A stretch of DNA of 64,000 nt from Bordetella parapertussis. Its GTDB lineage: Bacteria; Pseudomonadota; Gammaproteobacteria; Burkholderiales; SG8-39. The stretch covers positions 3,754 to 67,753 of the forward strand of contig CAMAWC010000003.1 in the NCBI GenBank assembly GCA_945861875.1, in the 5' to 3' direction. This document shows, in pieces, positions 40,913 to 64,000 of the stretch. The notes under the pieces are model-generated. The model was not told the origin of the DNA. It saw only the letters and a program-made list of their open reading frames with translations, and ran no database searches. The first letter of the stretch is position 1. Each line of letters starts with the position of its first letter. The position numbers and the translations under genes are program-made.

Positions 40913-40959
40913 CTAAATACAATTGGCGGGAATCAGGTAATTTTTCAACCGGAACGAAT

Positions 40960-46673: not shown

Positions 46674-47966
46674 TCATGTCCAGGCGTGTCCAATGCGCTG
46701 CTCGACCCATAGCGCGACGGCGAGCAAGTGATCATCGCGGTGGAATCCACCGATGAATTTTGTGCCCACGGGCAGGCCCTTCGGCCCTTTGTGCGTCGGC
46801 AGTGATATTGCCGGTGCGTGCAGGAAAGTCCACATGCTCTGCCAGCGCTGATCTCCGGTTGCGGAAAGTCCCTCGGGTGCCTCGCCGGCGGCGCTTGGAA
46901 CCAGCAGCGCGTCGCAGTCACCGAGTACGGAGGGAAATGCCGCGCGGCACGCCGCCGCAGTGGCGAGGTCATCAAGATAGTCTTCGTAGCGGTGGTCGCG
47001 GCCGATCTCGAGGTATTGCTGGAGTTTCTCGCTCAACATTTCGCGGTGATTGTTCCATTCCCACGCCAATGCCCGGAAGAATTCATATGACAGCACCCTC
47101 CAGTGCGCCGCAGCCATGCTCGCAAAAAGCGGCGGTAATTCAATGCTTGTGACGCGCGCGCCCGCTGTGGCGAGTTTCGCCCCCATGTCATGGACCGCCT
47201 CGATCGATTCCGGGCTGGTTTCATTCCAGAGGTGCGTTCGGGCGATGGCAATGCGCGGCGGCCTTAGGAGGACGGTGGTGCCAACAGCCGGCCGGCCGTT
47301 GAGTACGGCATTGACCAGTGCAATGTCATTGACTGAGCGCGCCATGCACCCGATGGTGTCAAGCGATTCGGACTCGGACATCACCCCGGCGCGATTGACC
47401 AGCCCGTAGCTGGGTTTCCAGCCGACTACGCCGCAAAATGCCGCGGGACGGATCACCGAACCGGCGGTCTGGGTGCCGATGCCGGCCGGTACCATCAGGT
47501 CGGCCACCGCCGCGGCGGTACCGCTCGATGATCCCCCCGGCGTGTGCGCAGTATGGTGAGGGTTACGCGTCAGGTTCGGCTGCATGGCGGCAAATTCGGT
47601 CGTGACGGTTTTCCCGAGGATTACCGCACCGGCTGCCCGCAGCAGTCCTACCGAGGCGGCGTCGGCCCGCGGCTGGTTGCCGTCGTAGATGGGAGAGCCC
47701 ATGCCGGTGGGCATATCGGCGGTGTTGAAGATGTCTTTAACTGCGATGGGTACCCCATGCAGCAGACCGCTTCGCTCGGCAGAGTCGTCCCGCTCACGCG
47801 CCTGGAGGAGTGCCTTTTCCGCCGACAGGTACGCCCAAGCGTGCACCACGGGTTCACGCGTCGCGATGCGTTCGAGGCAATCCTGTACCAGGTCCACGGA
47901 GGAAATACCGCCAGAAGCTATGCGCCGTGCGGCGTCAGTGGCCGAGAGGTGGTTTAAGTTCGTCAT
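46674..47966 (-). CDS. Amidase signature family protein
   Basis: GVPIAVKD, GKTVTTEFA, PGGSSSG, GTQTAGSVIRPAAFCG. Confidence 0.93.
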   Translation of the reverse strand: MTNLNHLSATDAARRIASGGISSVDLVQDCLERIATREPVVHAWAYLSAEKALLQARERDDSAERSGLLHGVPIAVKDIFNTADMPTGMGSPIYDGNQPRADAASVGLLRAAGAVILGKTVTTEFAAMQPNLTRNPHHTAHTPGGSSSGTAAAVADLMVPAGIGTQTAGSVIRPAAFCGVVGWKPSYGLVNRAGVMSESESLDTIGCMARSVNDIALVNAVLNGRPAVGTTVLLRPPRIAIARTHLWNETSPESIEAVHDMGAKLATAGARVTSIELPPLFASMAAAHWRVLSYEFFRALAWEWNNHREMLSEKLQQYLEIGRDHRYEDYLDDLATAAACRAAFPSVLGDCDALLVPSAAGEAPEGLSATGDQRWQSMWTFLHAPAISLPTHKGPKGLPVGTKFIGGFHRDDHLLAVALWVEQRIGHAWT

Positions 47967-48021
47967 AGTTTGAATATATCAAATCCTGTTCCCAAAGTTC
48001 TGGTGATGAAAAATCGGAGAT

Positions 48022-48037
48022 TGGCGCGAAGCTTGCT
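48022..48037 (+). promoter_or_regulatory. Sigma54 -24/-12 consensus element
   Basis: TGGCGCG-AAGC-TTGCT fits TGGCACG-N4-TTGCW with exact spacing; points toward the glnT-like operon about 380 nt downstream. Confidence 0.5.
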
Positions 48038-48348
48038 CATGCAGGACTATGGTGCGGCGCGTCGCAAGCTTGAATCTGCTCGAAGTGTAGACGCAATTGG
48101 GGACCAGGCGGGAGGCGGCATACAGGTGTCCAGCGGTTGCACCGTGACCGCTTTGGCGCTGTCAACCCAGGCAATTGGTGCACTGCCAGCAGGCAGGGCG
48201 ACCAGGTTTTGCACCATTGATGGGCGGGAGCGGTGTTGCTTGGCGACGGGTACTCCTGAGCTTTTCTTATAGGTATTAGCGGTCTAGCTGCTCGTTGCCG
48301 GTTGAGGAAAAAAATTCGAGTTATAACTTGTTATGCCGTGTTAAAGAT

Positions 48349-48375
48349 GTTTAAATTAATCGGTTAGTTAAATTT
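48349..48375. promoter_or_regulatory. Putative TetR-type operator in an AT-rich promoter region
   Basis: Imperfect palindrome TTAATCG-GT-TAGTTAA about 50 nt upstream of the operon's first gene; the operon encodes a TetR. Confidence 0.4.
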
Positions 48376-48419
48376 GAATAAGTGCACGCAGCAGATTACC
48401 TAATCCGAGGGGAATACCA

Positions 48420-49805
48420 GTGAACGACCCGAGACTGATCGCCGAAACGAAACGCCAGTTGACCGCCAAGGGAGTGGAGTACTGCCTTGCGGCTTACGTT
48501 GATGGTCATGGCGTGCCGAAAACCAAGACCGTGCCTATGGCCTATTTTGAAAAAATGGCAAAAGGCTCCGAACTCTTCACCGTCGGTGCCCTCGAGGGCC
48601 TCGGCTTGATCGGTCCGCAAAAAGACGAATGTGCGGCGGTCCCCGATCTGTCCAATCCAGTCATTCTTCCTTGGGACAAGCGATTCGCCTGGTTTGCCAG
48701 CGACCTTTACTACCATGGTGAGCCGTACGTAAATTGCCCCAGGGTCGCGCTGAAGCGTGTTTTGGCGAAGACCGCTGCAGCCAAGCAGGTGTTCAACCTT
48801 GGTGTCGAGCCCGAGTTTTACGTGTTCCGCAAGTCTGCCGGCGGCTTTGAGCCCATGGCGACGAGCCGTTTTTTGGGGCCGACTCCCGCATACGATGCCG
48901 ACCAGACGATGCAGTCGTTCGCTTTCCTCGACCCGATCGTGAGGTACATGAACGAACTGGGCTGGGGCGTCTATTCGTTCGACCAGGAGGGGGGGCGCGG
49001 CCAGTATGAGCTGGATTTTGCCTATGCCGATGCGCTCAAGACCTGTGACAGGCTGATATTTTTGCGTTTTATGGCAAAGCAGGTGGCCCGCTCCATTGGA
49101 TGCGTTGCGAGCTTCATGCCCAAGCCGTTCAGCGATGATTTTCGTTCCGGCGCCCACTACAACATGTCTTTGGCCGACGCAAAGTCAAAGGTCAACCTGT
49201 TTGAGCCGAAACGTTCCGCGCCGGGCAAGCTGGCGAAGCGCTACGGTATCGAGATTGCCGACATCGCCCTCCACTTTTCAGCGGGACTGTTGGCGCATGC
49301 GCCGGCATTGACGGCGCTTTCCTGTCCGACCTTCAATTCCTACAAGGGGCTGGTTTCTCAGGGAGACATGGCAGACATGTCCTGGGCGCCGGTAATGCGG
49401 TGCTATGGCCGCAACAACCGTTCCGCGATGCTCCGATTGCCGATGAACCGCTATTGCATCGAGAACCGTTCCCCGGATATCAGCACGAACTATTACCTGA
49501 CGGCGGCGTTTTCCCTCGCGGCCGGCATGGAGGGCATGAAAAAACAGTCCGATCCGGGCGCGCCCTGGAACGAGAACCTGTACGAACTCGAAGGCGGGCG
49601 CACGACCCGCTCACAGCCCATGCCCGAGCGTCTGCCACGTACGCTCATCGAAGCCCTTGATGCGTTCGGGACGGACCCCTTGATCGTCGACACCTTTGGG
49701 GCGGAGTTCCGGGATATTTATTTGAAACAAAAGACAAAGGAATGGGAGCAGGCCTTCTACAAAATTTCCGATGAAGAGCGGCACAGCGCGATGGAATACA
49801 TTTGA
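48420..49805 (+). CDS. Glutamine synthetase-like gamma-glutamyl ligase (GlnT / gamma-glutamylmethylamide synthetase-like)
   Basis: LGVEPEFY, DQEGGRGQYE, FMPKPF, SGAHYNMS, YGRNNRSAMLR, IENRSPD; GTG start with a GAGGGG RBS. Confidence 0.88.
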   Translation: MNDPRLIAETKRQLTAKGVEYCLAAYVDGHGVPKTKTVPMAYFEKMAKGSELFTVGALEGLGLIGPQKDECAAVPDLSNPVILPWDKRFAWFASDLYYHGEPYVNCPRVALKRVLAKTAAAKQVFNLGVEPEFYVFRKSAGGFEPMATSRFLGPTPAYDADQTMQSFAFLDPIVRYMNELGWGVYSFDQEGGRGQYELDFAYADALKTCDRLIFLRFMAKQVARSIGCVASFMPKPFSDDFRSGAHYNMSLADAKSKVNLFEPKRSAPGKLAKRYGIEIADIALHFSAGLLAHAPALTALSCPTFNSYKGLVSQGDMADMSWAPVMRCYGRNNRSAMLRLPMNRYCIENRSPDISTNYYLTAAFSLAAGMEGMKKQSDPGAPWNENLYELEGGRTTRSQPMPERLPRTLIEALDAFGTDPLIVDTFGAEFRDIYLKQKTKEWEQAFYKISDEERHSAMEYI

Positions 49806-49818
49806 GGCGCAGAGGGGC

Positions 49819-50457
49819 ATGAACTCGCCCAATGCCAGTATCCAGCTCTACACGGCCGCTACCGGAAACGGCCGTCGGGCGACCATCATGCTCGAGGAGT
49901 GCGGGCTGCCGTATGTTGCCCACGTCATTCCCATCGGCAAGGCCGCGGTCAAGCCGTTCGAATTTTTGCGCATCAATCCGCACGGAACAGTGCCGCTGAT
50001 TGTCGATCCGGGGGGCGAACATGGACGGGACGTGGTGTTGCGCCAGTCAAGCGCCATCCTGCTGTATCTGGCGGAAAAGTCTGGAAAGCTGCTGCCGCGG
50101 GATCCGGCCGCGCGGGCCGTGATGTTCGAATGGATGATGTTCGCCGTGACCGACGTTGTCGGGTCAAACACGGCGATGTACCAGACAATGACCGAGTTTC
50201 CCGACAACGCGCCCGGCGTGGTCGAGTTTTTCCGGCGCCAATTGGTGGAATTCCTGCGTGTTTGCGACGCGAGACTGGCTCAATCAGAGTATCTGGCCGG
50301 AGCGGAAATGAGCATCGCCGACATCGCGCTTTTTCCGGTGTTCGTGAGCAGGGCAGCCTTGGTAGAGGAGTCGGACGGGCTGGACAATTTCAAGCGATGG
50401 GCGGCGGCAATCGGCGCCAGGGCGGGTGTACGGCGCGCACTTGCCGTGGGAACCTGA
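49819..50457 (+). CDS. Glutathione S-transferase (YfcG/Nu-class-like)
   Basis: TGNGRR..IMLEE, INPHGTVP, QSSAILLYLAEKSG, YLAG..SIADI motifs. Confidence 0.9.
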   Translation: MNSPNASIQLYTAATGNGRRATIMLEECGLPYVAHVIPIGKAAVKPFEFLRINPHGTVPLIVDPGGEHGRDVVLRQSSAILLYLAEKSGKLLPRDPAARAVMFEWMMFAVTDVVGSNTAMYQTMTEFPDNAPGVVEFFRRQLVEFLRVCDARLAQSEYLAGAEMSIADIALFPVFVSRAALVEESDGLDNFKRWAAAIGARAGVRRALAVGT

Positions 50458-50641
50458 AGGCCGTGCCTTTCATCAAAAGTGCGCGCAAGCGACGACGGTA
50501 TTGGGTTTTTTAAACTTCCGGGTATTGCATGGTTCGCATATACGAACGACGTGGAACAAGCAAACCGGGCGGGAAGCATGACTTTATGGCAGGCCTTTGT
50601 GGCAGACGGGTTCGACTCGACAACACCTCTGGGAGAATGAC

Positions 50642-51769
50642 ATGAATGACATGAATAAAAAAGGCAAGACAAGTTTTGCCACTCGGCGCAGGATTCTTGC
50701 GGGCGCCGCCGCCGGGACGGCATTGGCGGTCACCGGAATGTCAATGCCCGCCATCGGGCAGGGGCTGACCAAGGTCAAGCTGACGCTTCCCTGGTTGCCG
50801 CAGGGGTCTCAATTGTGGCCGTTTGTGGCGAAGGAACGCGGGTTTTGGCGCAAGCGGGGTCTTGATGTGGAAATCGTCCGCGGTTTCGGCTCCAACGCCG
50901 CCATCCAAACGCTGGTGCAGCGCCAGACCGATGTCGGCATCATTGCGGTCCCCTCGATCATGCTGTCCGCCGCACAAGGCGTACCCTTGCGCTCGTTCGG
51001 CATCGTCGGCTACGACCTCGGCATGGGCATCCTTACCCTTGAGGAAGGGCCGATTAAAACCCTCAAGGACCTCGAGGGTCGCAAACTCGGTACGACGCCC
51101 CCGTCGGCAGAGGCGCCGTATGTGGATGCTTTTCTGCAGGGCTCGAATGTTGACCTGAGCAAGGTATCGCGCGTTGCGTTACAGGGCAATGTGCTCGATT
51201 CATCCCTGCTCAATAAGCAGGTGGACGCCATTTCCGCGGTCGCAACGTCCAACCTGCCGAGTCTGCTGTCCCAGGGCATCAAGCTGCGCTTTTTTCCGAT
51301 GAACAGCGCCGGTATCAACACATACTCGCTCGGTTTGACGGTGGCGCCGGAGTATGCAAGCGCCAACCGGGCCGTCGTTGAAGGGTGGGTTGACGGAATG
51401 AATGAGGGCATCAAGTATTTCATGCTCAATTTCGAGGAATCGGTGGACCTGTTTGTGAATGCGGTACCGGAGGTGAAAATGTCCGCCACCGGAAAGGTGC
51501 ACACGCGCTACGGGGCAGGCCTTGCCCTTGCCACCATGATGGCGCCGGAGTTGCGCGATCATGGGCTGGGCTGGGCAGACATGGCGTCCTTGAACAAGCA
51601 AACCGATTTGGTGATGAAGTTCGGAGCGCCGCCAACGGCCAAGCGCCCGGACGTCGGCGCCATCTTCACCAACGAGTTCGCGGGCAGGATGAAGCTCACT
51701 GCGCAAGAAGACGCCAGTGTGCGCAAGACCGCCGCGGAGTTTGCCCGTCACCTGAACTTCAAGGTCTGA
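50642..51769 (+). CDS. ABC substrate-binding protein, NMT1/THI5/SsuA-like, with Tat signal
   Basis: TRRRIL leader; VKLTLPWLPQG, VAKERGF...GLDVEI..GFGS, IKTLKDLEGRKLG. Confidence 0.88.
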   Translation: MNDMNKKGKTSFATRRRILAGAAAGTALAVTGMSMPAIGQGLTKVKLTLPWLPQGSQLWPFVAKERGFWRKRGLDVEIVRGFGSNAAIQTLVQRQTDVGIIAVPSIMLSAAQGVPLRSFGIVGYDLGMGILTLEEGPIKTLKDLEGRKLGTTPPSAEAPYVDAFLQGSNVDLSKVSRVALQGNVLDSSLLNKQVDAISAVATSNLPSLLSQGIKLRFFPMNSAGINTYSLGLTVAPEYASANRAVVEGWVDGMNEGIKYFMLNFEESVDLFVNAVPEVKMSATGKVHTRYGAGLALATMMAPELRDHGLGWADMASLNKQTDLVMKFGAPPTAKRPDVGAIFTNEFAGRMKLTAQEDASVRKTAAEFARHLNFKV

Positions 51770-51781
51770 GGGGAAATCCGG

Positions 51782-52630
51782 ATGGCCGTCGCACCCGCCC
51801 AGCCTCCAAGGCCGCCCAGCGAGGAAGCCTTCATACGCGTCGCCGGGGTGGGCAAGACCTACGCCGGCAAAGGTGGGCGGGGGCTCAAAGCACTGCACGA
51901 TGTCAGCTTTGACGTGGGACGACGGCAGTTCATTTCCATTCTCGGTGCATCCGGCTGCGGGAAAAGCACGTTGTTGATGATGATTGCGGGGCTGGAGCAG
52001 ATCAGTGCGGGCCAGATCATCATTGCCGGGCAGGTCGCCGGCCGTCCGCGCCGCGATGTCGGCGTTATCTTCCAGGACGCGACTTTGCTGCCATGGAAGA
52101 CGGCCATCGAGAACGTGCTTCTCCCTATAGAAATATTCGGGCTTAAGAAGGAGCAGTACCGCGAGCGTGCGGAGGCCTTGCTTGGGCTGGTGGGGCTGGG
52201 CCACGCGATGGACAAGCGCCCACGCGAGTTATCCGGAGGCATGCGGCAAAGGGTGTCGATCTGCCGGGCGCTCATCCATGAGCCGTCGGTGCTGTTGATG
52301 GATGAACCGTTCTCGGCGCTTGATGCGATCACGCGTGATGACTTGAACGTCGAACTGCTGCGCATCTGGGACCGTTACCACCAAACGGCTTTGTTCGTCA
52401 CGCACTCGATAAGAGAGGCGGCATTCCTGTCCGATCGCGTCATTGTTCTGGGTGACCGTCCAGGGCGTGTTCTGGCGGACATGACCATGCCGTTTCCGCG
52501 GCCACGTGATCTTTCCATCGGCGAAACGATCGAGTTCAACCGCATTTGCGCCGAACTCCGGCACCACGTCGCCACGGGGCACGCCGAAGCGTCGGCAGCG
52601 GTATCTACCACGACCGGAGCGGCGACTTGA
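51782..52630 (+). CDS. ABC ATP-binding protein (TauB/SsuB/NitT-like)
   Basis: GASGCGKST, LSGGMRQR, LMDEPFSALD, VTHSIREA. Confidence 0.93.
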   Translation: MAVAPAQPPRPPSEEAFIRVAGVGKTYAGKGGRGLKALHDVSFDVGRRQFISILGASGCGKSTLLMMIAGLEQISAGQIIIAGQVAGRPRRDVGVIFQDATLLPWKTAIENVLLPIEIFGLKKEQYRERAEALLGLVGLGHAMDKRPRELSGGMRQRVSICRALIHEPSVLLMDEPFSALDAITRDDLNVELLRIWDRYHQTALFVTHSIREAAFLSDRVIVLGDRPGRVLADMTMPFPRPRDLSIGETIEFNRICAELRHHVATGHAEASAAVSTTTGAAT

Positions 52631-53451
52631 AGCCCGAATCATCGACTGTCGAAGTATTCGAAGCCGCTGGCGGACCGACGGCGTCCGAAGGCTCGGCCCT
52701 GGCGTACGTACTTCGCAAGATCGCACAACCGGTTGCCGCGGCGGCGGTATTCCTTCTGGCTTGGGAGATACTGGTCAGGGCCTACCAGATCAAACCGGCA
52801 TTCCTGCCCCCGCCCAGCGCTATTCTGCTTGCCATGGCGGCGCAGTGGGAAATCCTCCTGAAAAACGCCGTTCCCACGGCACTGGAGTCACTTGGCGGAT
52901 TTGTCCTGTCGGTGGTGGTCGGGGTAATGCTCGGGGCGTTGTTGACGTTTTCGAGGGCGTCGCGCGACTATCTTTACCCAAACGTCGTATTGTTCCAGCT
53001 TGTGCCCAAGGTCGCAGTGGCACCGCTGTTCATGCTTTGGCTCGGGATCGACTGGCAGTCACGGGTGGCCATCGCGTTTTTCATCGCGTTTTTCCCCATT
53101 GTCATTTCCACGGTATCGGGCCTGAATGCGGTCGATCCGACCCTGCTTCGCCTTTTCCGCAGCCTGACTGCGAACGAATGGCAGGTGTTTATGAAGGTGC
53201 GCGTTCCGATGTCACTGCCGTTTGTCTTCAACGGCATGAAGATCAGCATGACGCTGGCTATCATCGGCGTCATTGTCGGCGAGTTTGTCACTTCACAACG
53301 CGGCCTCGGTTACATCATTCTTTTTGCCGGATCACGCCTTGAAACGGCGTTGGTCCTGGCAGCCATACTCGTGCTTTGCATCGTGGGCCTCCTCCTGTAC
53401 GGCATTGTGGCGCTGGCCGAGCACCTGATCATGAAGAAATACGGCGCTTGA
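52627..53451 (+). CDS. ABC permease (TauC/SsuC-like)
   Basis: FLPPPS, PKVAVAPL..LWLG, FFPI, IGVIVGEFV..RGLG; TTG start overlapping the ATPase stop (start uncertain). Confidence 0.88.
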   Translation: MKPESSTVEVFEAAGGPTASEGSALAYVLRKIAQPVAAAAVFLLAWEILVRAYQIKPAFLPPPSAILLAMAAQWEILLKNAVPTALESLGGFVLSVVVGVMLGALLTFSRASRDYLYPNVVLFQLVPKVAVAPLFMLWLGIDWQSRVAIAFFIAFFPIVISTVSGLNAVDPTLLRLFRSLTANEWQVFMKVRVPMSLPFVFNGMKISMTLAIIGVIVGEFVTSQRGLGYIILFAGSRLETALVLAAILVLCIVGLLLYGIVALAEHLIMKKYGA

Positions 53452-53453
53452 GC

Positions 53454-54251
53454 ATGGTGCAAACCGGCTTTTCAAACCGGGTCGCCCTGATCACCGGCGG
53501 CGCCACGGGGATTGGGCTGGAACTGGCGAGGCAGCTGCGTTTGCGCAACAACGAGGTGGTGATTTGCGGGCGCCGGCAGGAGTTGGTCGAGAGTGCGCTG
53601 AGGTCGATACCAGGGTTGCGTGGCATCGCATGTGACCTGGGCGCGGACGAGGGCATCGACCGCCTGCTCGATTTTGTCCGCAGCGAGAAACTGACTATCG
53701 ACCTGCTGGTCAATAACGCGGGCATACAGGTGCAGACGGACCTGATGGTCGCCGATGATCGCATCACCGGGGCGCTGGAGTATGAGTTGCAGGTCAACCT
53801 GCTTGCACCGATGAAGCTGACAAAGCGCCTGCTGCCGTCGCTGCTGTCGCGGCCGGACGCGGTGATCCTCAATATGCTTTCCCTGCTCGCAATCATGCCC
53901 AAGGCAAATGCCCCCGGATATTGCGCCGCCAAGGCCGGGCTTTTTGCTTTTTCGAAGTCGCTTCGTGTTTTGCTCGCGCAACGCGACATCCGGGTTTTTG
54001 TGGCTTTCCCGCCGCTGGTCGACACGCCGATGATGCGGGGGCGGGGCAGCAACAAGATGCCGGTGGAGACATTTGTCCGGGAGATGCTTGAACAAATGTC
54101 GCGTGGGCGTCTGGATATTTGCGTCGGATCGGCGCGCACCCTTTATCGGCTGGAACGCCTCTCACCGGCGCTTGCCGGATGGTGGACCCGACGCATCTCG
54201 GCCGGCAGCACCCTTCCGGCCGAACAACCCAAGACACCCCCTATCCAATAA
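53454..54251 (+). CDS. Short-chain dehydrogenase (DltE-like SDR)
   Basis: TGGATGIG, VICGR, VNNAG, YCAAK, PPLVDT motifs. Confidence 0.9.
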   Translation: MVQTGFSNRVALITGGATGIGLELARQLRLRNNEVVICGRRQELVESALRSIPGLRGIACDLGADEGIDRLLDFVRSEKLTIDLLVNNAGIQVQTDLMVADDRITGALEYELQVNLLAPMKLTKRLLPSLLSRPDAVILNMLSLLAIMPKANAPGYCAAKAGLFAFSKSLRVLLAQRDIRVFVAFPPLVDTPMMRGRGSNKMPVETFVREMLEQMSRGRLDICVGSARTLYRLERLSPALAGWWTRRISAGSTLPAEQPKTPPIQ

Positions 54252-54275
54252 ACGGTATTGGCCGGAGATCCCGTT

Positions 54276-55535: not shown

Positions 55536-56531
55536 ATGACGGACAAGAAGCTTGTAACCTATGTAAAGAATGTTCGCTCCCTCGGAGCGGTATTCGATCT
55601 CGACAAAGAGGTTTTCGCAAAGGTGGCCGCGCGCTTCCCGGAAGTCGCGAAGAGGCTTGATTTACGGATCGGCTACGACGACGACGAAGTGGCGAAATGG
55701 CTGCCGGAGGCCGAAATCCTGTTTGCCTGGGAGTTCGATCGCAGCAATCTTGCCGTGGCGGCGCCCAAGCTGCAGTGGATACAGTTGATGGGCGCCGGCC
55801 TGGACCATCTGCTGCCGCTCGACTGGCTGCCTCCGAAAGTTCGCCTTGCCACCGCCGCCGGGGCTCATCATGACAAGGCGGGTGAGTTCCTGTCCACCGC
55901 CGTATTAATGCTGAACAACTGGATTCCGGCATTTGCCACGGAACAACGATCGGCAAAGTGGGCAACGCGGTACTCCGGCCCGGTGACCGGGAAAACCGTC
56001 CTTCTGGTCGGCGTCGGCGGAACCGGGGGCGCTTGCGCCGAACGCTGCAAGGCGCTGGGCATGCAGGTATTGGGCGTGCGGCCGAGCCGCAGGCCGCACC
56101 CGGCGGTCGATGAGATGTTTGGCAGCGACGAGTTGAAATCTGTCCTGCCGCGCGCCGATTTCGTCGTCGTCACGGTGCCGCTGACCGAGCGCAACCGCGG
56201 CACCATCGGCCGCGAGGAATTCGCCTGCATGAAGCAGGGCGCGGGACTGGTGAATATCGGTCGCCACGGCGTCGTGAATGAGGCGGCAATGATGGAGGCC
56301 CTGGAGAGCGGCAAACTCTCGGGTGCGGTACACGATCTGGAGGATCCGGCCGCCGTCCCTTGCGACAAGCGACTCTGGACAACGCCCAATTTGCTCATTA
56401 TCCCGCATTGCCTGACCAATGATCCGGCAACATTTCGCGAACATGTGCTTGAAGTATTTTTCAAGAATGTCGATGAATACCTGGCCGGCCGAGAGCTTAA
56501 AACGCTGGTCGATCGGAAGCTGGGGTACTGA
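55536..56531 (+). CDS. D-isomer specific 2-hydroxyacid dehydrogenase family protein
   Basis: LQWIQ..GAGLD, GVGGTG, ADFVV..PLT, VNIGR, IIPH motifs. Confidence 0.87.
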   Translation: MTDKKLVTYVKNVRSLGAVFDLDKEVFAKVAARFPEVAKRLDLRIGYDDDEVAKWLPEAEILFAWEFDRSNLAVAAPKLQWIQLMGAGLDHLLPLDWLPPKVRLATAAGAHHDKAGEFLSTAVLMLNNWIPAFATEQRSAKWATRYSGPVTGKTVLLVGVGGTGGACAERCKALGMQVLGVRPSRRPHPAVDEMFGSDELKSVLPRADFVVVTVPLTERNRGTIGREEFACMKQGAGLVNIGRHGVVNEAAMMEALESGKLSGAVHDLEDPAAVPCDKRLWTTPNLLIIPHCLTNDPATFREHVLEVFFKNVDEYLAGRELKTLVDRKLGY

Positions 56532-56651
56532 ACCCCAACTGGGCATCTAAAAGGATCCGGTGTCAGGTAAAGAGCGCCGGGGCTGATTAATTGATAGCGC
56601 AACGCGGTCGCCATACCGCGGCAATGACTTCACATAAAAAAGGATTTTTCC

Positions 56652-57725
56652 ATGAGCAACCCACGTTACAAGTACAACGCCCTGATGGATTTGGTGGCGG
56701 CCCTTGGCACAAAAGTCGGCTTGCCGGCCGATCGTGCCAGAACGCAGGCGGAGATCCTGCTCGAAGGGGACCTGATGGGACACACGACGCACGGCCTGGC
56801 GCTGTTGCCGGGCATGCTCTCCGGGCTGGAGTCCGGAGCGATCCGCGCTTCCGGCGACCAGATTCAGGTATCGGATCACGGATCGACCATCGTATGGGAT
56901 GCCGACCGCCTGCCGGGTACCTGGATGTTGACAGAGGCCATCTCCGAGGCCTGCCGCAGGATAGACAAACATCCGGTGATGACGGTTGTGCTCAAGCGCA
57001 TGTCCCATATCGCGGCTCTTGGCGCCTATCTTCGCCAAGCGACCGACAAGGGGCTGGTGATCTCGATCATGAATTCCGACCCTTCCATGCGCACCGTCGC
57101 GCCGGCCGGCGGGATGGAAGCGCAGTTGGCGGCAAACCCCATTGCGTTTGGCTATCCGACCGATACGGACCCGGTACTCATCGACGTCAGCACTTCCCCC
57201 GTTGCCAATGGCTGGGTTCGGCGCTGGGGCGCCGAAAAGAAAAAACTGCCGGGTAAATGGCTGCTCGACGCATCAGGAAATCCGACAGACGAGCCGGGTG
57301 CCTTGTTTGGTACGCCGAGTGGCGCGATGCTTCCGCTTGGCGGCCTGGAACTTGGGCACAAGGGCTTTGCCTGGGGGTTGATCGTCGAGGTGCTGACGGC
57401 GGGGCTATCGGGCCTCGGTCGAGCCGACAATGTCGCGCCTAACACCGGTACACCGGTTTTCCTGCAGATCATCGACCCGGATGCGTTTGCGGGAAAGACC
57501 GCATTGAAACGCGAGGCGGGTTGGCTGGCCAATGCCTGCCGCAATTCCAAACCGATTCGTCCCGGATCCACGGTGAGAATGCCGGGGGATTCGGCCCTGG
57601 CATCGCGCCGGCGCCAGCTTGCCGCCGGCGTGGAACTCTATCCGGCCATTCCGCCCGAGTTGTCAAAATGGGCCGACAAGCTGGGTGTCAAAATGCCCGC
57701 GGCGATGGCTGAAGGCGCAGCCTGA
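56652..57725 (+). CDS. Ldh_2 family oxidoreductase (AllD/ComC/DlgD-like)
   Basis: DLMGHTTHGL, SHIAAL, NPIAFG, GHKGF, VRMPG motifs. Confidence 0.9.
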   Translation: MSNPRYKYNALMDLVAALGTKVGLPADRARTQAEILLEGDLMGHTTHGLALLPGMLSGLESGAIRASGDQIQVSDHGSTIVWDADRLPGTWMLTEAISEACRRIDKHPVMTVVLKRMSHIAALGAYLRQATDKGLVISIMNSDPSMRTVAPAGGMEAQLAANPIAFGYPTDTDPVLIDVSTSPVANGWVRRWGAEKKKLPGKWLLDASGNPTDEPGALFGTPSGAMLPLGGLELGHKGFAWGLIVEVLTAGLSGLGRADNVAPNTGTPVFLQIIDPDAFAGKTALKREAGWLANACRNSKPIRPGSTVRMPGDSALASRRRQLAAGVELYPAIPPELSKWADKLGVKMPAAMAEGAA

Positions 57726-57736
57726 ATTTCCGCGCC

Positions 57737-58390
57737 GTGACGGCAGCAGCGCAGGAGCTTCGCCCAAACTGGCCCGACGGCCTTCCGCCCGAAAGGGCGA
57801 AGGACCTGATGGCGGCGGCGCTGGAGCTTTTTGCGCGGCATGACTATTCATCCGTGACGATCAAGGATATTGCGCGCAGCCTGGGGGTGAATACCGCGCT
57901 TATCTACTATTACTTTGACAGCAAGGAAGACCTGTTCCGGGTCACCCTCGAGTATTTCATCCAGAAAGCCCTGGAAACCTTTCGCGGCCTTGAGCGTGCC
58001 AACGAGGATCCGGTGAAAATGCTTTCGGCATGGTTTTCCACCCAGGCGCGCCTCGCCGGCGAGATCCGCCAGTTGGTCAAGATCATGCTCGATTACAGTA
58101 TCTCCGGAGGCCAGTCAAAAGTGGCGGACGCGGCGATTCATGTGTTCTACCAGCACGAGTTGAAGATACTCTCCAGTCGCATCCAGCTTGGTGTCAAAAA
58201 AGGAATCTTCCGTGCCGTCAATGTAAAAAGGGCGGCGCAACTCGCGTCGACCCATCTGGATGGAATCATGGTCGGTTCGCTGATGCATCCTGATTTTGAC
58301 GTTGCCTCGGCGATTCGTGATTTTGAAGAGGTTTTTTGGAACTATCTTGGCTACAGTCCTGCCCGGAAAGTTTTGCTAAAACGCAGATGA
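57737..58390 (+). CDS. TetR/AcrR family transcriptional regulator
   Basis: AALELFA...VTIKDIA..LGVN.ALIYYYFDSKEDLF HTH. Confidence 0.92.
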   Translation: MTAAAQELRPNWPDGLPPERAKDLMAAALELFARHDYSSVTIKDIARSLGVNTALIYYYFDSKEDLFRVTLEYFIQKALETFRGLERANEDPVKMLSAWFSTQARLAGEIRQLVKIMLDYSISGGQSKVADAAIHVFYQHELKILSSRIQLGVKKGIFRAVNVKRAAQLASTHLDGIMVGSLMHPDFDVASAIRDFEEVFWNYLGYSPARKVLLKRR

Positions 58391-58402
58391 AAGGATAGCC
58401 GA

Positions 58403-59551
58403 ATGACCGAGCTTTTCGAGTCCAAAACCTATCGCGCGCTTCGCAAACCGCTGCTTGATGCCGAGACCCTGCCGCCGGAGTGCTACACCTCGGCGGAGTT
58501 TCATCGCCGCGAGGTTGCCGAGATATTCCTGAAGAGCTGGAACCTCGTCGGTCGAACCGACTATGTGAAGAAAGCCGGTGACTATTTCACGCACACGGTG
58601 ACGGGCGTGTCCTTCATCGTAATTCGCGGCGACGACGGCCGCATCCGGGCCCTGGTCAACTCCTGCACGCATCGCGGGACAAAGTTGCTCGAAGGTGAGG
58701 GCAATTGCCGCACGATCCGCTGCCCCTATCACAGCTGGATGTTTGACCGGGACGGGGCGCTCAAAAGCGCGCCCTATATGCAGGACGTTCCGGGATTCTC
58801 CATGGGGGAAAATGGGCTCGTTGAAATCAGGCTGGAGGAGTGGTCGGGTTTCCTGTTCGTGAATTTTGACCCCGGGTGCGGCAAGCTGCGGGACTATCTT
58901 GGCGACCTGGATGCGTGGACGGAGTCCTACGAGTTTGGGCGCATGGTCACGGTCAAGCGCAAGGAGTTCGTGATCCGCGGAAACTGGAAAGGTTACGTGG
59001 AGAATTCCCTTGAGCACCTGCACCTGCCCACGGTGCATCAAAAGACCATCGGCGGCGTGCAGGCGATATGGGAGCCGGTTGATGGAACGCCGGGAAACTA
59101 TGTGATCCTGCGCTCGAAAACCGCCAATTCGCGTGCGACCCTTGGGAAGGATGTGGCATTTGACAGGATCGCCAGCCTGCGCGGACCGGCTGCTGAAGGG
59201 GCGCAGTACATATTGATTTATCCCTGCACCGTCATCGGGGCTGATCTGGATTGCATGTGGTTCAAGCAACTGCTGCCGGAAGGGCCCGATACGGTCCGGG
59301 TTGTCGCGGCGTTTTGCTTCACCCAGGAGGCGGTGGCAAGGCCGGATTTCGAACAGGTGGTGCAGAGTTATCACAAACGGTTCGATCTGGTGATGGGTGA
59401 GGACAACGATATCTCGGGCAAGCATCTGGCCGGGGTGGAAAATCCCCTGGCCCGCCCGGGACGCTTTTCCAGTCTGGAGCCGCTGGTCCACCGCATCGAT
59501 AACTGGATTGTCGACCGGGTGATCGGCCGCGGCGAAGGCGAAGCTAAGTAG
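58403..59551 (+). CDS. Rieske oxygenase alpha subunit 2
   Basis: CTH...CPYH; ENSLEHLHLPTVH; GEDN. Confidence 0.92.
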   Translation: MTELFESKTYRALRKPLLDAETLPPECYTSAEFHRREVAEIFLKSWNLVGRTDYVKKAGDYFTHTVTGVSFIVIRGDDGRIRALVNSCTHRGTKLLEGEGNCRTIRCPYHSWMFDRDGALKSAPYMQDVPGFSMGENGLVEIRLEEWSGFLFVNFDPGCGKLRDYLGDLDAWTESYEFGRMVTVKRKEFVIRGNWKGYVENSLEHLHLPTVHQKTIGGVQAIWEPVDGTPGNYVILRSKTANSRATLGKDVAFDRIASLRGPAAEGAQYILIYPCTVIGADLDCMWFKQLLPEGPDTVRVVAAFCFTQEAVARPDFEQVVQSYHKRFDLVMGEDNDISGKHLAGVENPLARPGRFSSLEPLVHRIDNWIVDRVIGRGEGEAK

Positions 59552-59612
59552 GCGAAGTAGCCGGGGTGCGCATCCGCGTGCCCGATGGCAATTGGCAGGA
59601 GGAAGCTAGGAT

Positions 59613-60905
59613 ATGGACAAGGGGCAAGGCACAAGTGGCAGTACCGCGCCGGGTGGCGCAGAGCAGCGCCGGCTTGAGGCGAACGCAGAGGCTTTCCGGC
59701 GGCTGTGCACCTCTGATCCGGTACTCCTGGATGTCAGGCCGGCCATTGAGGTTGTACCGGGATTTACCCGCGAAACAATTCTCACCTCCGGACCACTGCT
59801 GGCATGGGATGAATACACGGGGGGGCAGCGTTCGGCAATCATCGGCGGGGCATTGTTCGAGGGGCTGGCAAGCGATGCCCTGGATGCCGAGAAAAAGCTG
59901 GCGGCGGGGAGCATCCGGCTGCGTGGCTGCCAGGAACTGAAGTGCGTAGGCTCTCTTGCCGGGATCTACACCGCATCGATGCCGGTCTTTGTCGTCAGCA
60001 ACAAGGCTTTCGGCAATCTCGCCTACTGCAACATCTACGAGGGCACCAATCCGCGCAGGCTCAACTACGGCGTATATGACGATGGGGTGCGAGACCGGCT
60101 GCGTTACATCAGCGACATCATTGCTCCCGTTCTTGGCAGGGCGGTTCGTTCCGAGGGTGGCATACCGCTCAAATCCATCATGAGCCGCGCCCTGCACATG
60201 GGGGATGACCTGCACAGCAGGAATACCGCGGCTTCGCTGCTGTTTTCAAGGGAGATCTTTCCGGCGATGCTGGCGCTCGCGGTGACTGATTGCGATAGCG
60301 TCGACAAAGCCGTTCGCGCGATGACCGAGGATCACTATTTTTTCCTGCGCCTTTCCATGGCGGCGGCAAAGTCGATGGCGGACGCGGCGGCAGGAATCGA
60401 GGCATCAAGCATGGTTACCGCGATGGCATTCAATTGCCGCGGCTTCTCCATCCGGGTGAGCGGCCTGGGCGACGAGTGGTTTTCCGGTCCGCATGCGACG
60501 GTGCAGGCAACCTTATTCGCCGGACACACCCAGGACGAAATCACCTGGATGGGGGGCGAAAGCATCATTGCTGAAACGGTTGGCTTTGGCGGGTTTTCAC
60601 AGGCTGCCGCGTTCGCGCTGCAGAAGTACCAGGGCGGCTCTCCGGAAATGATGGTGGAGCGCAACCTCGCGCTTTACTCGATTACGATAGGCGAGAGTCC
60701 GGATTTCCAGATTCCATTCCTGCGTTATCGGGGCGCGCCGACGGGGATAGACATTTTCAAGGTTCTCGATACCGGCATATTGCCGGTGATGAACATCGGC
60801 GTCGCCGGGCGCGATGGCGGGCAGATTGGCGCCGGGATCGTGCAGGCGCCGAAGCCGTGTTTCGAGGCGGCGGCACAGGCTTACAGGAAACGATATGGAA
60901 CTTGA
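59613..60905 (+). CDS. DUF1116 family protein (YlbE/YahG, AllG-like)
   Basis: ILTSGP, AIIGGALFEG, ALHMGDDLHSRN.AA, HYFFL.LSMAAAK, G.SII.ET.GFGG, PTGID, GQIGAG motifs. Confidence 0.82.
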   Translation: MDKGQGTSGSTAPGGAEQRRLEANAEAFRRLCTSDPVLLDVRPAIEVVPGFTRETILTSGPLLAWDEYTGGQRSAIIGGALFEGLASDALDAEKKLAAGSIRLRGCQELKCVGSLAGIYTASMPVFVVSNKAFGNLAYCNIYEGTNPRRLNYGVYDDGVRDRLRYISDIIAPVLGRAVRSEGGIPLKSIMSRALHMGDDLHSRNTAASLLFSREIFPAMLALAVTDCDSVDKAVRAMTEDHYFFLRLSMAAAKSMADAAAGIEASSMVTAMAFNCRGFSIRVSGLGDEWFSGPHATVQATLFAGHTQDEITWMGGESIIAETVGFGGFSQAAAFALQKYQGGSPEMMVERNLALYSITIGESPDFQIPFLRYRGAPTGIDIFKVLDTGILPVMNIGVAGRDGGQIGAGIVQAPKPCFEAAAQAYRKRYGT

Positions 60906-61515
60906 GGGCAAGCGGGCGAGTTTGCTCAAGGAAATCATCGCCCCGGGCGGGACATGGGCCGGCGTGGTGAAACGCGGGCAGATCCTCAGGCTGACAGACC
61001 TTGAGGGAACGCAGGCGGTCGATTTTCTTTGCTATAACGCAAATGACACGCTGGAACGCTATTGCGCCGCCGATACCATCAAGATTGCGGGACAGATATT
61101 CATAGGCAAAGGATCTTTGCTGTATTCGGACATGGGGCGGGTACTGTTTACGGTGCTTGATGACACCTGCGGCAAACACGATTCCATCGGCGGTTGCTGC
61201 AGCCGCGAGAGCAACAAAGTCCGCTACGGCCTGGACGACGGGCCCAATTGCCGGGACAATTTCCTGCGTGCACTCAAGCCGTTCGGGCTTGGCAAACGCG
61301 ATATCGTCTCGAACCTGAATTTCTTCATGTATGTTCCCGTTGGGGACGCGGGTGAAATGGCGATCGTCGACGGACATTCCAGGGCCGGTGACTATGTTGA
61401 ATTGCGTGCGGAAATGGACGTCCTGTCGGTGCTGTCCAATTGCCCGCAAATGAACAATCCCGCGAACGGTTACAAGCTGACGCCGATATCGGTCGAGGTG
61501 CTTTACGCAGTTTGA
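60895..61515 (+). CDS. DUF1989 urea-carboxylase-associated protein (CgdB/UAAP2-like)
   Basis: LTDLEGTQAVD, HDSIGGCCS, NCRDNF, NLNFFMYVPV, AEMD...SNCPQMNNP; overlaps the DUF1116 stop. Confidence 0.87.
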   Translation: MELEGKRASLLKEIIAPGGTWAGVVKRGQILRLTDLEGTQAVDFLCYNANDTLERYCAADTIKIAGQIFIGKGSLLYSDMGRVLFTVLDDTCGKHDSIGGCCSRESNKVRYGLDDGPNCRDNFLRALKPFGLGKRDIVSNLNFFMYVPVGDAGEMAIVDGHSRAGDYVELRAEMDVLSVLSNCPQMNNPANGYKLTPISVEVLYAV

Positions 61516-61605
61516 TGGATAACAGACCCGATCCGCATGCCGCAACCAGCACGAACGGCCTTCAGGGCATCCGGCGGCGCCAATTCTTTGCCAAGGGGGT
61601 GTGAG

Positions 61606-62742
61606 ATGCTTACCGCAGCGCAATTTGATCCCGTAAGGAAGCCTCTGGATGAGGCCGAGACATTGCCGCCGTCGTGCTATCACTCGGAGGAGTTTTATGA
61701 CCTCGAGGTGCGCAATATTTTCCGCAAGCAGTGGATCCTCATGGGGCGTTCGGAAGAGTGGAAGGAGCAGGGCGCGTTCATCGCATATGAGCGGTTTGGC
61801 ATTCCGTTCTTTATCGTCAGGGACCAGTCCGGACGGCTGCGCGCATTTGCCAATAGTTGCAGGCATCGTGGTTCGCAGATAGTCAGCGGCTGTGGAAAAT
61901 TACAGACTTTTGTCTGTCCGTATCACAGCTGGGTTTATGGGCTCGACGGAAGCTTGCGCCGGGCGCCGGGCATGGAGGGCAATGCTGGGTTCGACTCATC
62001 CGAATACGGGCTTGCGGAGATCAGGCTCGAAACCTGGCTTGGTTTTGTGTTTGTAAACTTCAACCCTGACTGCGCACCGCTGTCGAACCAGCTCGGCGAT
62101 CTGGGCGACTACCTGAAACCCTACGATTTTGACAACGTGGTGACTGTTGGGCGTGACGAGTACGAAGTCAAGACAAACTGGAAGACCCTTGTCGAAAACT
62201 CGATGGAGTGGCTGCATCATCCGACGGTGCACAAGCAGTCGATTGCCGGCAAGGTGGCAACCATCCAGCGCAAGGTGGTTTATGGAAATCCGGGCGAATA
62301 CGTGATGATCCAGTCGCAGGCCAAGGGGGTGTCTCGGGCGACGCTCGACAACGAAAGCGGTTTCCCCCCTGTTTCCTCGCTGACCGGGGCAACCCGCGAC
62401 GGCTCACACTACGTTCTCATCCTCCCGTTCGCGATGCTCGGGTGCGACGTCGATTCTATTTGGTACAAGCAAATGATACCGGAGGGGCCGGGGCTTGTTC
62501 GAAACATCGCAACCTATTGCTTCCACAAGGAGACCATTGCGCGCCCGGATTTTGATCAGGTCTCTCCCAATTATTTCCGCCGGTTCCGCAAGGTCGTGAC
62601 CGAGGATAATGTGGCAATGGAGCGTCAGCAGGTCGGGCTGATGTCTCCCTTGGCAAAGCCCGGCCGTTATTCGGACCCGGAAATTCTGGTGCATCGTATC
62701 GACAACTGGGTTCTCGACAAGGTCTTTGCGCAAGATGGTTGA
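61606..62742 (+). CDS. Rieske oxygenase alpha subunit 3
   Basis: CRH...CPYH; ENSMEWLHHPTVH; TEDN. Confidence 0.92.
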   Translation: MLTAAQFDPVRKPLDEAETLPPSCYHSEEFYDLEVRNIFRKQWILMGRSEEWKEQGAFIAYERFGIPFFIVRDQSGRLRAFANSCRHRGSQIVSGCGKLQTFVCPYHSWVYGLDGSLRRAPGMEGNAGFDSSEYGLAEIRLETWLGFVFVNFNPDCAPLSNQLGDLGDYLKPYDFDNVVTVGRDEYEVKTNWKTLVENSMEWLHHPTVHKQSIAGKVATIQRKVVYGNPGEYVMIQSQAKGVSRATLDNESGFPPVSSLTGATRDGSHYVLILPFAMLGCDVDSIWYKQMIPEGPGLVRNIATYCFHKETIARPDFDQVSPNYFRRFRKVVTEDNVAMERQQVGLMSPLAKPGRYSDPEILVHRIDNWVLDKVFAQDG

Positions 62743-62910
62743 TCTGCCTTGCCCGGCACGGCTTGCGGGGATTGCCAATTGGCCGTTCCGGACCGCCCGG
62801 TGACGTGCGCGACAACAGCGTTGATGCAATGCGGATTTCGAGCAATGGACCTGCAGGAATATTTGAACTGATTCCAACCTACCCGGAAAAAACTACGGAG
62901 AATGATGATC

Positions 62911-63750
62911 ATGAAAAATGCAAAATCCCTGGTAAAGGCGCTCGTGGTTGCGCTTGCCCTGTTCGTCGCGCCGGGCGCGGCATTCTCACAGTCTGGTGAT
63001 ACATTCGAGAGGATTCTTCGCGACAAGAAAATAAAATTTGGCTATATCGTTTCGCCGCCCAGCGCCATCCGCGACCCGGCCAGCGGTGCGGTCTCCGGCT
63101 TTTACATCGATGCTGCGCGGGCACTGGCCGAGTTGATGCAGGTTGAAGCGGAATTTGTCGAAACCAGTTGGGCCAATTTTGCCTCGGCGCTGCAGGCGGG
63201 CCAATTCGACATTTCAATAGCGGCGACATTTGCAACTATACCGCGGGCGATGGCGGTGTCGTTTACGAATCCCATCAATTACCAGAGTTTCAGCGGGGTG
63301 GCGCGACGGGGCGACCAGCGATTCAAGAAGATGGCCGACCTCAACAAGGCGGAGGTGAAGGTGGCGGTGGTGCAGGGGAGCGCCGGTCATGAGTTTGCGC
63401 GTCAAAATCTGAAGCTGGCCAACATCATCGCGTTGGGAACCAGCAACCTTCAGCAACCGTTCCTTGAGGTAAGCGCAGGGCGGGCCGATGTCGCAATCCA
63501 GGACGAATCGCAAGTGCGCCGATATGTCCCCACGCACAAGGAGGTCGTGCCGCTTTTCGGGGGGACGGCTTTCAACACCCTGCCTCTGGCGTGGGCTGTC
63601 CGGCGCGGAGATCAAGCGCTGCTCGGTTTCCTTAACACGTCCATCACGTACATGATGACCTCCGGGCGCTGGGACGAGATTGCCGCGAAGTACGGGCCGA
63701 CCGGGCGGTACAAGGACGCACCGCAACTCGTTCCATTCGGCACGTTCTGA
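62911..63750 (+). CDS. Polar amino-acid ABC substrate-binding protein (family 3)
   Basis: Signal peptide; SGFYID, LQAGQFDI, T..RA..VSFT.P, GRAD, WAVRRGD motifs. Start may be 62902 or 62905. Confidence 0.88.
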   Translation: MKNAKSLVKALVVALALFVAPGAAFSQSGDTFERILRDKKIKFGYIVSPPSAIRDPASGAVSGFYIDAARALAELMQVEAEFVETSWANFASALQAGQFDISIAATFATIPRAMAVSFTNPINYQSFSGVARRGDQRFKKMADLNKAEVKVAVVQGSAGHEFARQNLKLANIIALGTSNLQQPFLEVSAGRADVAIQDESQVRRYVPTHKEVVPLFGGTAFNTLPLAWAVRRGDQALLGFLNTSITYMMTSGRWDEIAAKYGPTGRYKDAPQLVPFGTF

Positions 63751-63823
63751 GCATCAAAATGGCCGGGACGTTGCGGTATCTGCTTAGCCGGGCAATTCGG
63801 TCCGGTCATGGGAAGGGCGCCAA

Positions 63824-64000
63824 ATGAAGCTTATCAAGAGGGGTCTCATTCCGGCGCGCAAGGGTGCGGCGGCGGACTTGCGCAAGGGGCAGTCGATCCG
63901 TGTCATCAATACGCATGGGGCGCAGGTGGTTGACACGTGGGCTTTCTCCAGCGCGGACCCGCAGGAATTCATGTCAATGGAGCATAGTCGTGCGGGGATG
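63824..64000 (+). CDS. Second DUF1989 family protein (runs off the window)
   Basis: Manual translation MKLIKRGLIPARKGAAADLRKGQSIRVINTHGAQVVDTWAF...EFMSMEHSR. Not in the ORF track. Confidence 0.8.
   Translation, partial: MKLIKRGLIPARKGAAADLRKGQSIRVINTHGAQVVDTWAFSSADPQEFMSMEHSRAGM

Follow-up and report, generated by a model that had tools for sequence, protein, structure and literature searches.

What kind of compound is degraded by a gene cluster that joins several Rieske oxygenases to an amine ligase, two importers and members of ureide- and guanidine-related families? The question is raised by the distal part of a 64,000-nucleotide stretch of contig C3 (G000:C3:3754-67753, hereafter the window), from a 93% complete assembly whose host is a freshwater Alcaligenaceae-like bacterium; for the sequence past the window end we used the next 20 kb of the contig (locus L001). 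A preliminary description, made from the letters of the window alone, had reported 16 co-oriented genes from 48420 to beyond 64000 plus a divergent amidase, and had read them as one pathway of uptake, oxidative dealkylation, glutamylation of the released amine and breakdown of a ureide core. The layout holds, in that the listing of open reading frames (ORFs) and Pfam give 15 complete and one window-cut co-oriented ORFs on the + strand between 48420 and 64000 with the amidase upstream, and every gene family then named was recovered by Pfam. As had also been supposed, the cluster continues beyond 64 kb: L001 supplies the remainder of DUF1989b, a permease and an ABC ATPase, which makes 18 co-oriented genes in total, and after the ATPase follow three convergent genes (SDR2, 2-Hacid_dh 2 and Rieske4). 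The interpretation as a whole is partly supported. Throughout, coordinates are those of maximal ORFs, families were assigned by Pfam, equivalogs by NCBIfam cut-offs and structural relatives by matches in the PDB.

We favour, with a probability of roughly 0.4, the reading that the locus is an island of catabolic modules directed at amino-acid-like organic nitrogen compounds, in which imported substrates would undergo Rieske-type C-N cleavage or hydroxylation, paired dehydrogenases would process the resulting oxo or hydroxy acid, and a ligase would trap the amine. Each Rieske enzyme, acting as an alpha-only monooxygenase broadly of the CntA/GbcA type, would hydroxylate the nitrogen-adjacent carbon of the import, and the carbinolamine would break down to an amine and either an aldehyde or an oxo acid. 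Oxo and hydroxy acid would be interconverted by the 2-Hacid_dh, Ldh_2 or SDR enzyme whose gene neighbours that of the oxygenase, a GMAS-like ligase would turn the released primary amine into a gamma-glutamyl amide, and the amidase together with the DUF1989 proteins would free ammonia from the remainder, while the electron-transfer reductase would be encoded outside the cluster. The presence of four paralogous oxygenases and two importers points to several related substrates or to successive steps.

In agreement with the preliminary description, the literature searched (supplementary files being outside its scope) yielded no described pathway that combines these families. Publications on DUF1116 and on DUF1989 contained no pathway like this cluster, those on Rieske enzymes with a glutamine synthetase-like (GS-like) ligase or gmaS concerned aromatic-amine systems only, and those on Rieske enzymes with carboxyguanidine deiminase or guanidino compounds held nothing relevant. 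The clusters for rhizopine (moc), stachydrine (stc), hydroxyproline betaine (hpb) and trigonelline (tgn) were considered and set aside as models, none of them being known to include DUF1116, DUF1989 or a GS-like ligase. Judged by its sequence, the cluster combines in a new way subfamilies that are uncharacterised but belong to known superfamilies. Pathways that still lack assignment underlie the turnover of dissolved organic nitrogen in lakes and oceans, and naming the substrate of this island would give functions to several orphan families together.

Rieske oxygenases and their dehydrogenase partners

Rieske1 (54258-55418), Rieske2 (58403-59551) and Rieske3 (61537-62742) lie on the + strand and Rieske4 (L001:5719-6891) on the - strand, and all four are alpha subunits with the Pfam Rieske and Ring_hydroxyl_A domains. 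The CxH...CxxH motif of the [2Fe-2S] ligands and the HxxxxH motif of the mononuclear iron are intact in each of them, with a slightly longer spacer in Rieske4, and since no beta-subunit family was found among the cluster ORFs scanned with Pfam, the enzymes are taken to be alpha-only. They are mutual paralogues at 39-46% identity (Rieske2 being 40-46% identical to the other three) and share at most about 31% with other Rieske genes of the genome; among the 15 genomic Ring_hydroxyl_A matches, they are distinct from the other 11 and are each other's closest paralogues. Next to these 15 matches, the assembly holds only two FNR-type NAD_binding_1 matches.

For all four proteins the best NCBIfam model is GbcA (NF058607), at 165, 115, 160 and 149 bits versus a cut-off of 670, and the best PDB match of Rieske1 is CntA (E 5.5e-38, residues 30-231 only). 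The earlier assignment to the CntA/GbcA type is therefore borne out as far as the best matches go, but the likeness covers the N-terminal half only and scores far under the cut-off. With the two-component C-N-cleaving systems CntAB (carnitine monooxygenase), GbcAB (glycine betaine monooxygenase) and Stc2 (stachydrine demethylase), the cluster proteins share the alpha-only build, the domain pair and the intact metal ligands. Unlike these systems, they have no partner reductase nearby and come as four paralogues, each beside a dehydrogenase instead of C1-handling genes.

Each Rieske gene of the window has a dehydrogenase neighbour. SDR1 (53376-54251, + strand; adh_short 129.8 bits) directly precedes Rieske1, and between Rieske1 and Rieske2 lie the D-isomer 2-hydroxyacid dehydrogenase 1 (55479-56531, + strand; 2-Hacid_dh_C 141.4 bits) and an Ldh_2 family dehydrogenase (56652-57725, + strand; Ldh_2 260.2 bits). 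The former is 40% identical to its paralogue beside Rieske4, 2-Hacid_dh 2 (L001:4649-5674, - strand), which is accompanied by SDR2 (L001:3809-4555, - strand); these genes are convergent with the cluster. No genes for C1/formaldehyde or tetrahydrofolate metabolism were found among the cluster genes scanned, which favours larger oxo acids over simple N-demethylation.

The pairing extends beyond this genome. With Rieske4 as the query, orthologues at 52% identity or more were recovered at 16 loci, and a 2-Hacid_dh orthologue adjoins in all 16 of them, a GMAS-family ligase in 13. These loci stem mostly from metagenome-assembled genomes (MAGs), and they are not independent, because several share contigs with the AllG-like loci described below and come from closely related lineages. 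Even so counted, a Rieske clade that is always paired with a D-2-hydroxyacid dehydrogenase (16/16 loci) constitutes a lead in its own right. For Rieske3, by comparison, the genome_contigs search returned three related loci only. The clade has undergone a marked lineage-specific expansion: two contigs of Alphaproteobacteria-type MAGs (L098 and L100) carry tandem arrays of five and six clade paralogues within 15-20 kb, several freshwater MAGs have four or more loci of the clade, and in some freshwater MAGs a single locus of 14.8 kb holds up to six copies.

In cultured strains, the nearest Rieske relatives are 34-42% identical and lie beside a 2-hydroxyacid-dehydrogenase-type oxidoreductase. The 42%-identical gene, on pNK83 of Caballeronia NK8, is also accompanied by genes for a gamma-glutamyltransferase, RidA and an arginase-family protein, and a plasmid of Roseovarius pelagicus carries another such relative together with RidA and a D-2-hydroxyacid dehydrogenase. 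Such neighbours fit imine or oxo-acid products and gamma-glutamyl intermediates. The constant dehydrogenase neighbour, taken together with RidA in the distant relatives, suggests that the oxygenases of the island, too, would yield oxo acids or imines.

The amine ligase and the AllG-like protein

The first gene of the co-oriented series, GS1 (48420-49805, + strand; Gln-synt_C 253 bits), belongs to the GlnT/GMAS family of GS-like ligases. It scores 420.9 bits with TIGR03105 (GlnT/GMAS type III glutamate-amine ligase), under the cut-off of 469.6, and its best PDB match is the glutamate-methylamine ligase 9qur (E 2.8e-79), in line with the GMAS-type assignment of the preliminary description. Two ligase paralogues that lie beside the AllG-like gene elsewhere, in the nearest relative (L003) and in Methyloceanibacter marginalis (L043), pass the same model with 534 and 517 bits (two copies tested). 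By these matches the ligase is GMAS-like, and its family and nearest solved structure link it to the gamma-glutamylmethylamide synthetase (GMAS) of the N-methylglutamate (NMG) pathway, PuuA, IpuC and AtdA1/TdnQ. It differs from those systems in staying under the TIGR03105 cut-off, in that the assembly yielded no GXGXG subunit of NMG synthase, and in being part of a cluster without a gamma-glutamyl hydrolase of PuuD/TdnT type.

The second constant element is a stand-alone AllG/DUF1116-like protein (59613-60905, + strand; PF06545 251.2 bits). No NCBIfam model matches it, its PDB match is an uncharacterised protein (3clq, E 6.7e-81), and a search of the ESM Atlas gave AllG/DUF1116 clusters and FdrA fusions only. 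Relatives at 55-98% identity were found at 60 loci, mostly in MAGs of Alphaproteobacteria, Burkholderiales and Gammaproteobacteria; two are from isolates, namely M. marginalis and Actinomadura vinacea (L055). Of these loci, 34 have 5 kb or more of flank on both sides; in this set, a GS-like ligase lies within 5 kb in 23, TetR is a neighbour in 18, 2-Hacid_dh in 10, a cluster-type Rieske gene in seven, DUF1989 in two and Ldh_2 in one. The M. marginalis locus (L043 368-13655) combines the AllG-like, TetR and GMAS-family ligase genes with an APC permease, two alpha/beta hydrolases (one of the MetX-like subfamily NF005757), an FMN reductase, EamA, LysR and an agmatinase-like arginase-family gene, and elements of this neighbourhood are found again in 12-23 of 53 loci. 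The expectation that the cluster genes would co-occur elsewhere was hence realised for two sub-cores, AllG-like/ligase/TetR and Rieske4/2-Hacid_dh, which are widespread, but not for the full set. The constant amine-ligase neighbour suggests that a primary amine would be either released or incoming.

With E. coli AllFGH, the cluster protein has the AllG (DUF1116) domain in common (251 bits). The E. coli oxamate carbamoyltransferase needs AllF, AllG and AllH together for activity (PMC11326118). In the cluster, by contrast, neither AllF nor AllH lies beside the AllG-like gene and the ORFs scanned contain no Ligase_CoA or CoA_binding protein, and the subfamily travels with the GMAS-like ligase and TetR instead. 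The sole AllH match of the genome is on contig C39, where it adjoins a 40%-identical AllG paralogue (G000:C39:2781-4584, L063); this pair probably represents the canonical oxamate carbamoyltransferase locus of allGH type. On C87 there is a third AllG paralogue with 28% identity. We infer that the cluster protein carries out a step other than oxamate carbamoyl transfer. A predicted complex of the GMAS-like ligase with the AllG-like protein (L004 pair) scored 0.02, the mark being 0.32, and weighs neither way. A second lead is the DUF1116/AllG subfamily that has no AllF/AllH partners and, in many uncultured members of the Alpha-, Beta- and Gammaproteobacteria, is found together with an amine ligase.

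Taken further, these observations allow a bolder and distinctly tentative proposal, which we consider possible though not probable: the GMAS-like ligase and the stand-alone AllG/DUF1116 paralogue, as constant neighbours, may form a new two-enzyme step, distinct from oxamate carbamoyl transfer, in a widespread aquatic pathway for a common dissolved organic nitrogen compound. That pathway would be opened by a new Rieske C-N-cleaving clade paired with a 2-hydroxyacid dehydrogenase; in some strains, DUF1989 enzymes would add to it by processing Rieske products with no carboxylase involved.

The prominence of the ligase also sustains the strongest of the alternatives, which we regard as somewhat doubtful. 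Here glutamylation would come first, as in the catabolism of aniline, isopropylamine and putrescine: the ligase would couple an imported primary amine to glutamate, a Rieske enzyme would hydroxylate the gamma-glutamyl amide, 2-Hacid_dh, Ldh_2 and SDR proteins would oxidise the alcohol, and the AllG-like protein or the amidase would free glutamate. A GS-like ligase being the most constant partner of the AllG-like gene (23/34) and of Rieske4 (13/16), and an amine ligase being its best solved relative, both agree with this order, as does the gamma-glutamyltransferase gene of the Caballeronia locus. Besides, the known systems of GS-like ligase plus Rieske enzyme, for aniline and 1-naphthylamine, are reported to run from glutamylation to oxygenation. 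However, the cluster ORFs scanned lack genes for ring cleavage, for a Rieske beta subunit and for a hydrolase of the class-I glutamine amidotransferase type, and they likewise differ from an aniline-dioxygenase-type system in the lack of a reductase. In addition, the window ligase lies 4 to 12 genes from the oxygenases, and the AllG-like protein has no known hydrolase activity.

Modules, transcripts and the DUF1989 proteins

Comparison with the nearest relative, G001 (loci L003/L146; 95.7% nucleotide identity), suggests that the island is composed of three evolutionary units. Module A (46.7-60.9 kb) comprises the amidase, the GMAS-like ligase, a glutathione S-transferase (GST), a NitT/TauT-type importer, SDR, Rieske1, 2-hydroxyacid dehydrogenase, Ldh_2, TetR, Rieske2 and the AllG-like gene. 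Module B (60.9-65.9 kb) contains DUF1989a, Rieske3, a polar-amino-acid-type importer and DUF1989b, and is a strain-specific insertion; module C (66.0-69.1 kb), on the opposite strand, holds SDR, 2-hydroxyacid dehydrogenase and Rieske4. G001 is colinear with the window over 46920-60902 and then lacks block B, a segment of 5.15 kb (window coordinates 60903-66054) with DUF1989a, Rieske3, the binding protein SBP3, DUF1989b, permease and ATPase, so that the 16 genes do not travel as one unit. In turn, an additional unit, AllG2-TetR2-GS2, is present in G001 and missing from the window genome. The full gene set was found in L003, L004 and the short contig L056 only, all of them from Burkholderiales or Bordetella-labelled MAGs.

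Such differences could mean that the modules were brought together by chance rearrangement, serve unrelated substrates and constitute no single pathway. The block B indel, the extra G001 unit and the narrow spread of the full set agree with this notion, and so does a Burkholderiales MAG (L149) in which the DUF1989a-Rieske3 pair, at 73% identity, stands with an Ldh_2 gene alone beside housekeeping genes. Yet we hold a mere mosaic to be unlikely: the four oxygenases are one another's closest paralogues in the genome, partners of the same kinds (dehydrogenase, ligase, AllG-like, TetR) recur around oxygenases in distant lineages, and the spacing of the genes, with gaps between neighbours of -97 to +159 nt, suggests co-transcription.

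Module A is also represented in RNA libraries. Contigs from four lake metatranscriptome libraries, 95-99% identical to the window, span 46.6-61.0 kb, from the amidase to the AllG-like gene; being assembled contigs, they speak to presence and not to levels. The flanking bin 46000-46600 is uncovered, as are 61.0-64.0 kb, where a hole in contig cover proves nothing and the source strain differs from that of the window. Only 18 of the 38 listed variants within the G001 alignment agree with the letters of G001, so that the RNA comes from a third related strain. Among DNA runs labelled lake water or freshwater metagenome, 14 contain half or more of the words sampled from the stretch, with shares of 0.89-1.00. 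Relatives keep gene order and protein sequence at 62-98% amino-acid identity (97% for GS1 in G001), and this conservation together with the RNA-library contigs argues that the cluster genes are real and not chance ORFs. Lake metatranscriptome contigs that match the core module are, moreover, consistent with its use in nature.

Several points weigh against the favoured reading of a modular island for amino-acid-like nitrogen compounds. The similarity to CntA/GbcA is confined to the N-terminal Rieske half, so that it says little about the chemistry of the catalytic domain. The cluster has no reductase gene, and the two PF00175 (NAD_binding_1) matches of the assembly lie on C43 and C87, none being on C3; this search covered reductases of the FNR type only. 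The GXGXG domain (PF01493, NMG synthase subunit B) is absent from the 93% complete assembly, which leaves the fate of a gamma-glutamyl amide unexplained, although the absence is weak evidence because even gltB is missing. Modules A, B and C differ in distribution and may serve different substrates, and the order of the steps could be reversed, with glutamylation first. Furthermore, no cluster enzyme reaches an NCBIfam equivalog cut-off, except DUF1989a with the hypothetical-equivalog model UAAP1, and the sequence names no substrate. Lastly, the RNA contigs derive from a related strain, and carry-over of DNA into the libraries is conceivable.

The proteins of block B bear on the ureide core breakdown with which the preliminary description had ended its pathway. 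DUF1989a (60895-61515, + strand; maximal ORF 60814-61515, with the likely true start at ATG 60895; DUF1989 230.3 bits) scores over the UAAP1 cut-off (TIGR03425, 214.8 versus 205.95 bits) and under that of UAAP2 (259.5 versus 284.7), whereas DUF1989b (L001:1578-2183, its 5' part being 63824-64000 of the window, + strand; DUF1989 163 bits) remains under both, with 104 and 59 bits. They are the only DUF1989 genes of the genome. The carboxyguanidine deiminase CgdAB (UAAP1/UAAP2), too, consists of two DUF1989 proteins; unlike it, the cluster pair is 29% identical and not adjacent, with Rieske3 and the binding-protein gene in between. Nor does a carboxylase go with them: for the urea/guanidine carboxylase TIGR02712, the assembly gave only partial matches in the biotin-carboxylase domain, none past the cut-off. 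The only catabolic role known for DUF1989 proteins is defined by a carboxylase, and their occurrence without it is a third lead. Both proteins also match the trimethylamine N-oxide demethylase Tdm by NCBIfam (98 bits each), with which they share the DUF1989 domain but not the GcvT domain, and DUF1989a matches Tdm in the PDB as well (9q59, E 9e-22).

On a ureide or guanidine route, a Rieske enzyme would alpha-hydroxylate an N-carbamoyl- or N-amidino-glycine-like compound, Ldh_2 would oxidise the product as AllD does ureidoglycolate, the AllG-like protein would cleave an N-acyl-oxamate and DUF1989 would deiminate a carboxyguanidine-like intermediate. The AllG, Ldh_2 and DUF1989 families are all there, with DUF1989a over its UAAP1 cut-off; of 53 loci, 20 have an arginase-family gene close to the AllG-like one, and the Caballeronia locus contains an arginase-family gene too; a creatinase/M24-family gene adjoins Rieske1-like genes of Alphaproteobacterial MAGs in 10 of 39 loci; and the nearest binders to SBP3 include Arg/Lys types. 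We nevertheless judge this route quite unlikely. Ldh_2 reaches only 85.3 bits with AllD (TIGR03175), the cut-off being 496.2, and so does not bear out its earlier equation with AllD. AllF and AllH are missing from the cluster, no carboxylase passes its cut-off, and Rfam gave no match, guanidine and other riboswitches included, either at the gathering threshold (window and L001) or at E <= 1 (46000-64000). The DUF1989 genes sit in an insertion that the nearest relative lacks, and the AllG-like gene is accompanied by DUF1989 in just 2, and by Ldh_2 in 1, of the 34 loci. A single pathway ending in a ureide or guanidine core is thereby disfavoured.

Catabolism of a taurine-like aminosulfonate, in which a Rieske enzyme would desulfonate by hydroxylating the sulfonate-adjacent carbon after SsuA/TauA-like uptake, with Ldh_2 as a sulfolactate-dehydrogenase-like enzyme, is very unlikely, for although methanesulfonate monooxygenase is a Rieske enzyme, SsuA_fam is the sole NCBIfam match of the NMT1-type binding protein (51 bits) and L-sulfolactate dehydrogenase is the second-best one of Ldh_2 (123.8 bits; PDB 2x06 at E 1.7e-28, all PDB matches of this protein being distant), these scores lie far under the cut-offs of 163.5 and 500, and the cluster genes scanned include neither a small oxygenase subunit nor an exporter or dehydrogenase for sulfite.

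Importers, regulation and surrounding genes

The two importers belong to different types. That of module A consists of the NMT1-type binding protein (50597-51769, + strand; NMT1 119.9 bits), an ABC ATPase (51782-52630, + strand; ABC_tran) and a permease (52546-53451, + strand; BPD_transp_1) of NitT/TauT type; the PDB matches of its binding protein are weak (4nmy, 3qsl and the ThiY-like 3ix1). That of block B is of polar-amino-acid type, with SBP3 (62902-63750, + strand; SBP_bac_3 86.3 bits) followed, after DUF1989b, by the permease (L001:2087-2875, + strand) and the ABC ATPase (L001:2854-3672, + strand). The nearest PDB relatives of SBP3 are cyclohexadienyl dehydratase and AncCDT-1, then Lys/Arg/Orn binders. 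Both binding proteins have distant liganded relatives only.

The GST gene (49771-50457, + strand; GST_N_2, GST_C_2 and related models) had led the preliminary description to a comparison with caffeine demethylation by NdmABCDE, which likewise has several Rieske paralogues and a GST-family gene in one cluster, its GST NdmE being bound to NdmC. The analogy is unsupported in two respects, as contig C3 has no FNR-type NdmD-like reductase and the cluster GST is nearest to the YghU/YfcG-type disulfide reductases (101 and 92 bits, far under the cut-offs). Conservation of the GST is limited to L003 and L004, two close relatives within Burkholderiales. The divergent amidase (46674-47966, - strand; Amidase 265.7 bits), an amidase-signature enzyme, has indoleacetamide hydrolase as its best NCBIfam match, with 248.9 bits versus a cut-off of 532 and hence without an equivalog, and it is kept in G001, at 93% nucleotide identity over 46920-51307.

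For the TetR regulator (57737-58390, + strand; TetR_N 63.4 bits), the best NCBIfam match is a weak one to BetI (50 bits). All palindromes of the intergenic regions are short. One of them, an AT-rich palindrome at 48364-48381 with 12-nt overlapping arms that are 83% complementary, lies ~40 nt upstream of the ligase start, between amidase and ligase, and is a possible operator. A promoter scan gave two promoter-like sites, fewer than the shuffle mean of 5.6, and terminator-like sites were uninformative.

A 100-aa ORF between amidase and ligase (47970-48272) has no Pfam match. Two ORFs upstream of Rieske4, at L001:6892-7254 (120 aa) and L001:7308-7715 (135 aa), belong to no family and are of odd composition, and we treated them as non-genes. 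On the far side of the amidase, the window stretch 34218-46613 carries a PrpF gene, four TctC (Bug-family) receptors, an alpha/beta hydrolase and other catabolic genes, among them a molybdenum hydroxylase large subunit (37275-39590) and MmgE/PrpD (45168-46613), whose link to the cluster is not evident. Beyond the cluster at its other end, L001:7636-11374 encodes a cytochrome b561 and an IorB-like molybdopterin-binding subunit.

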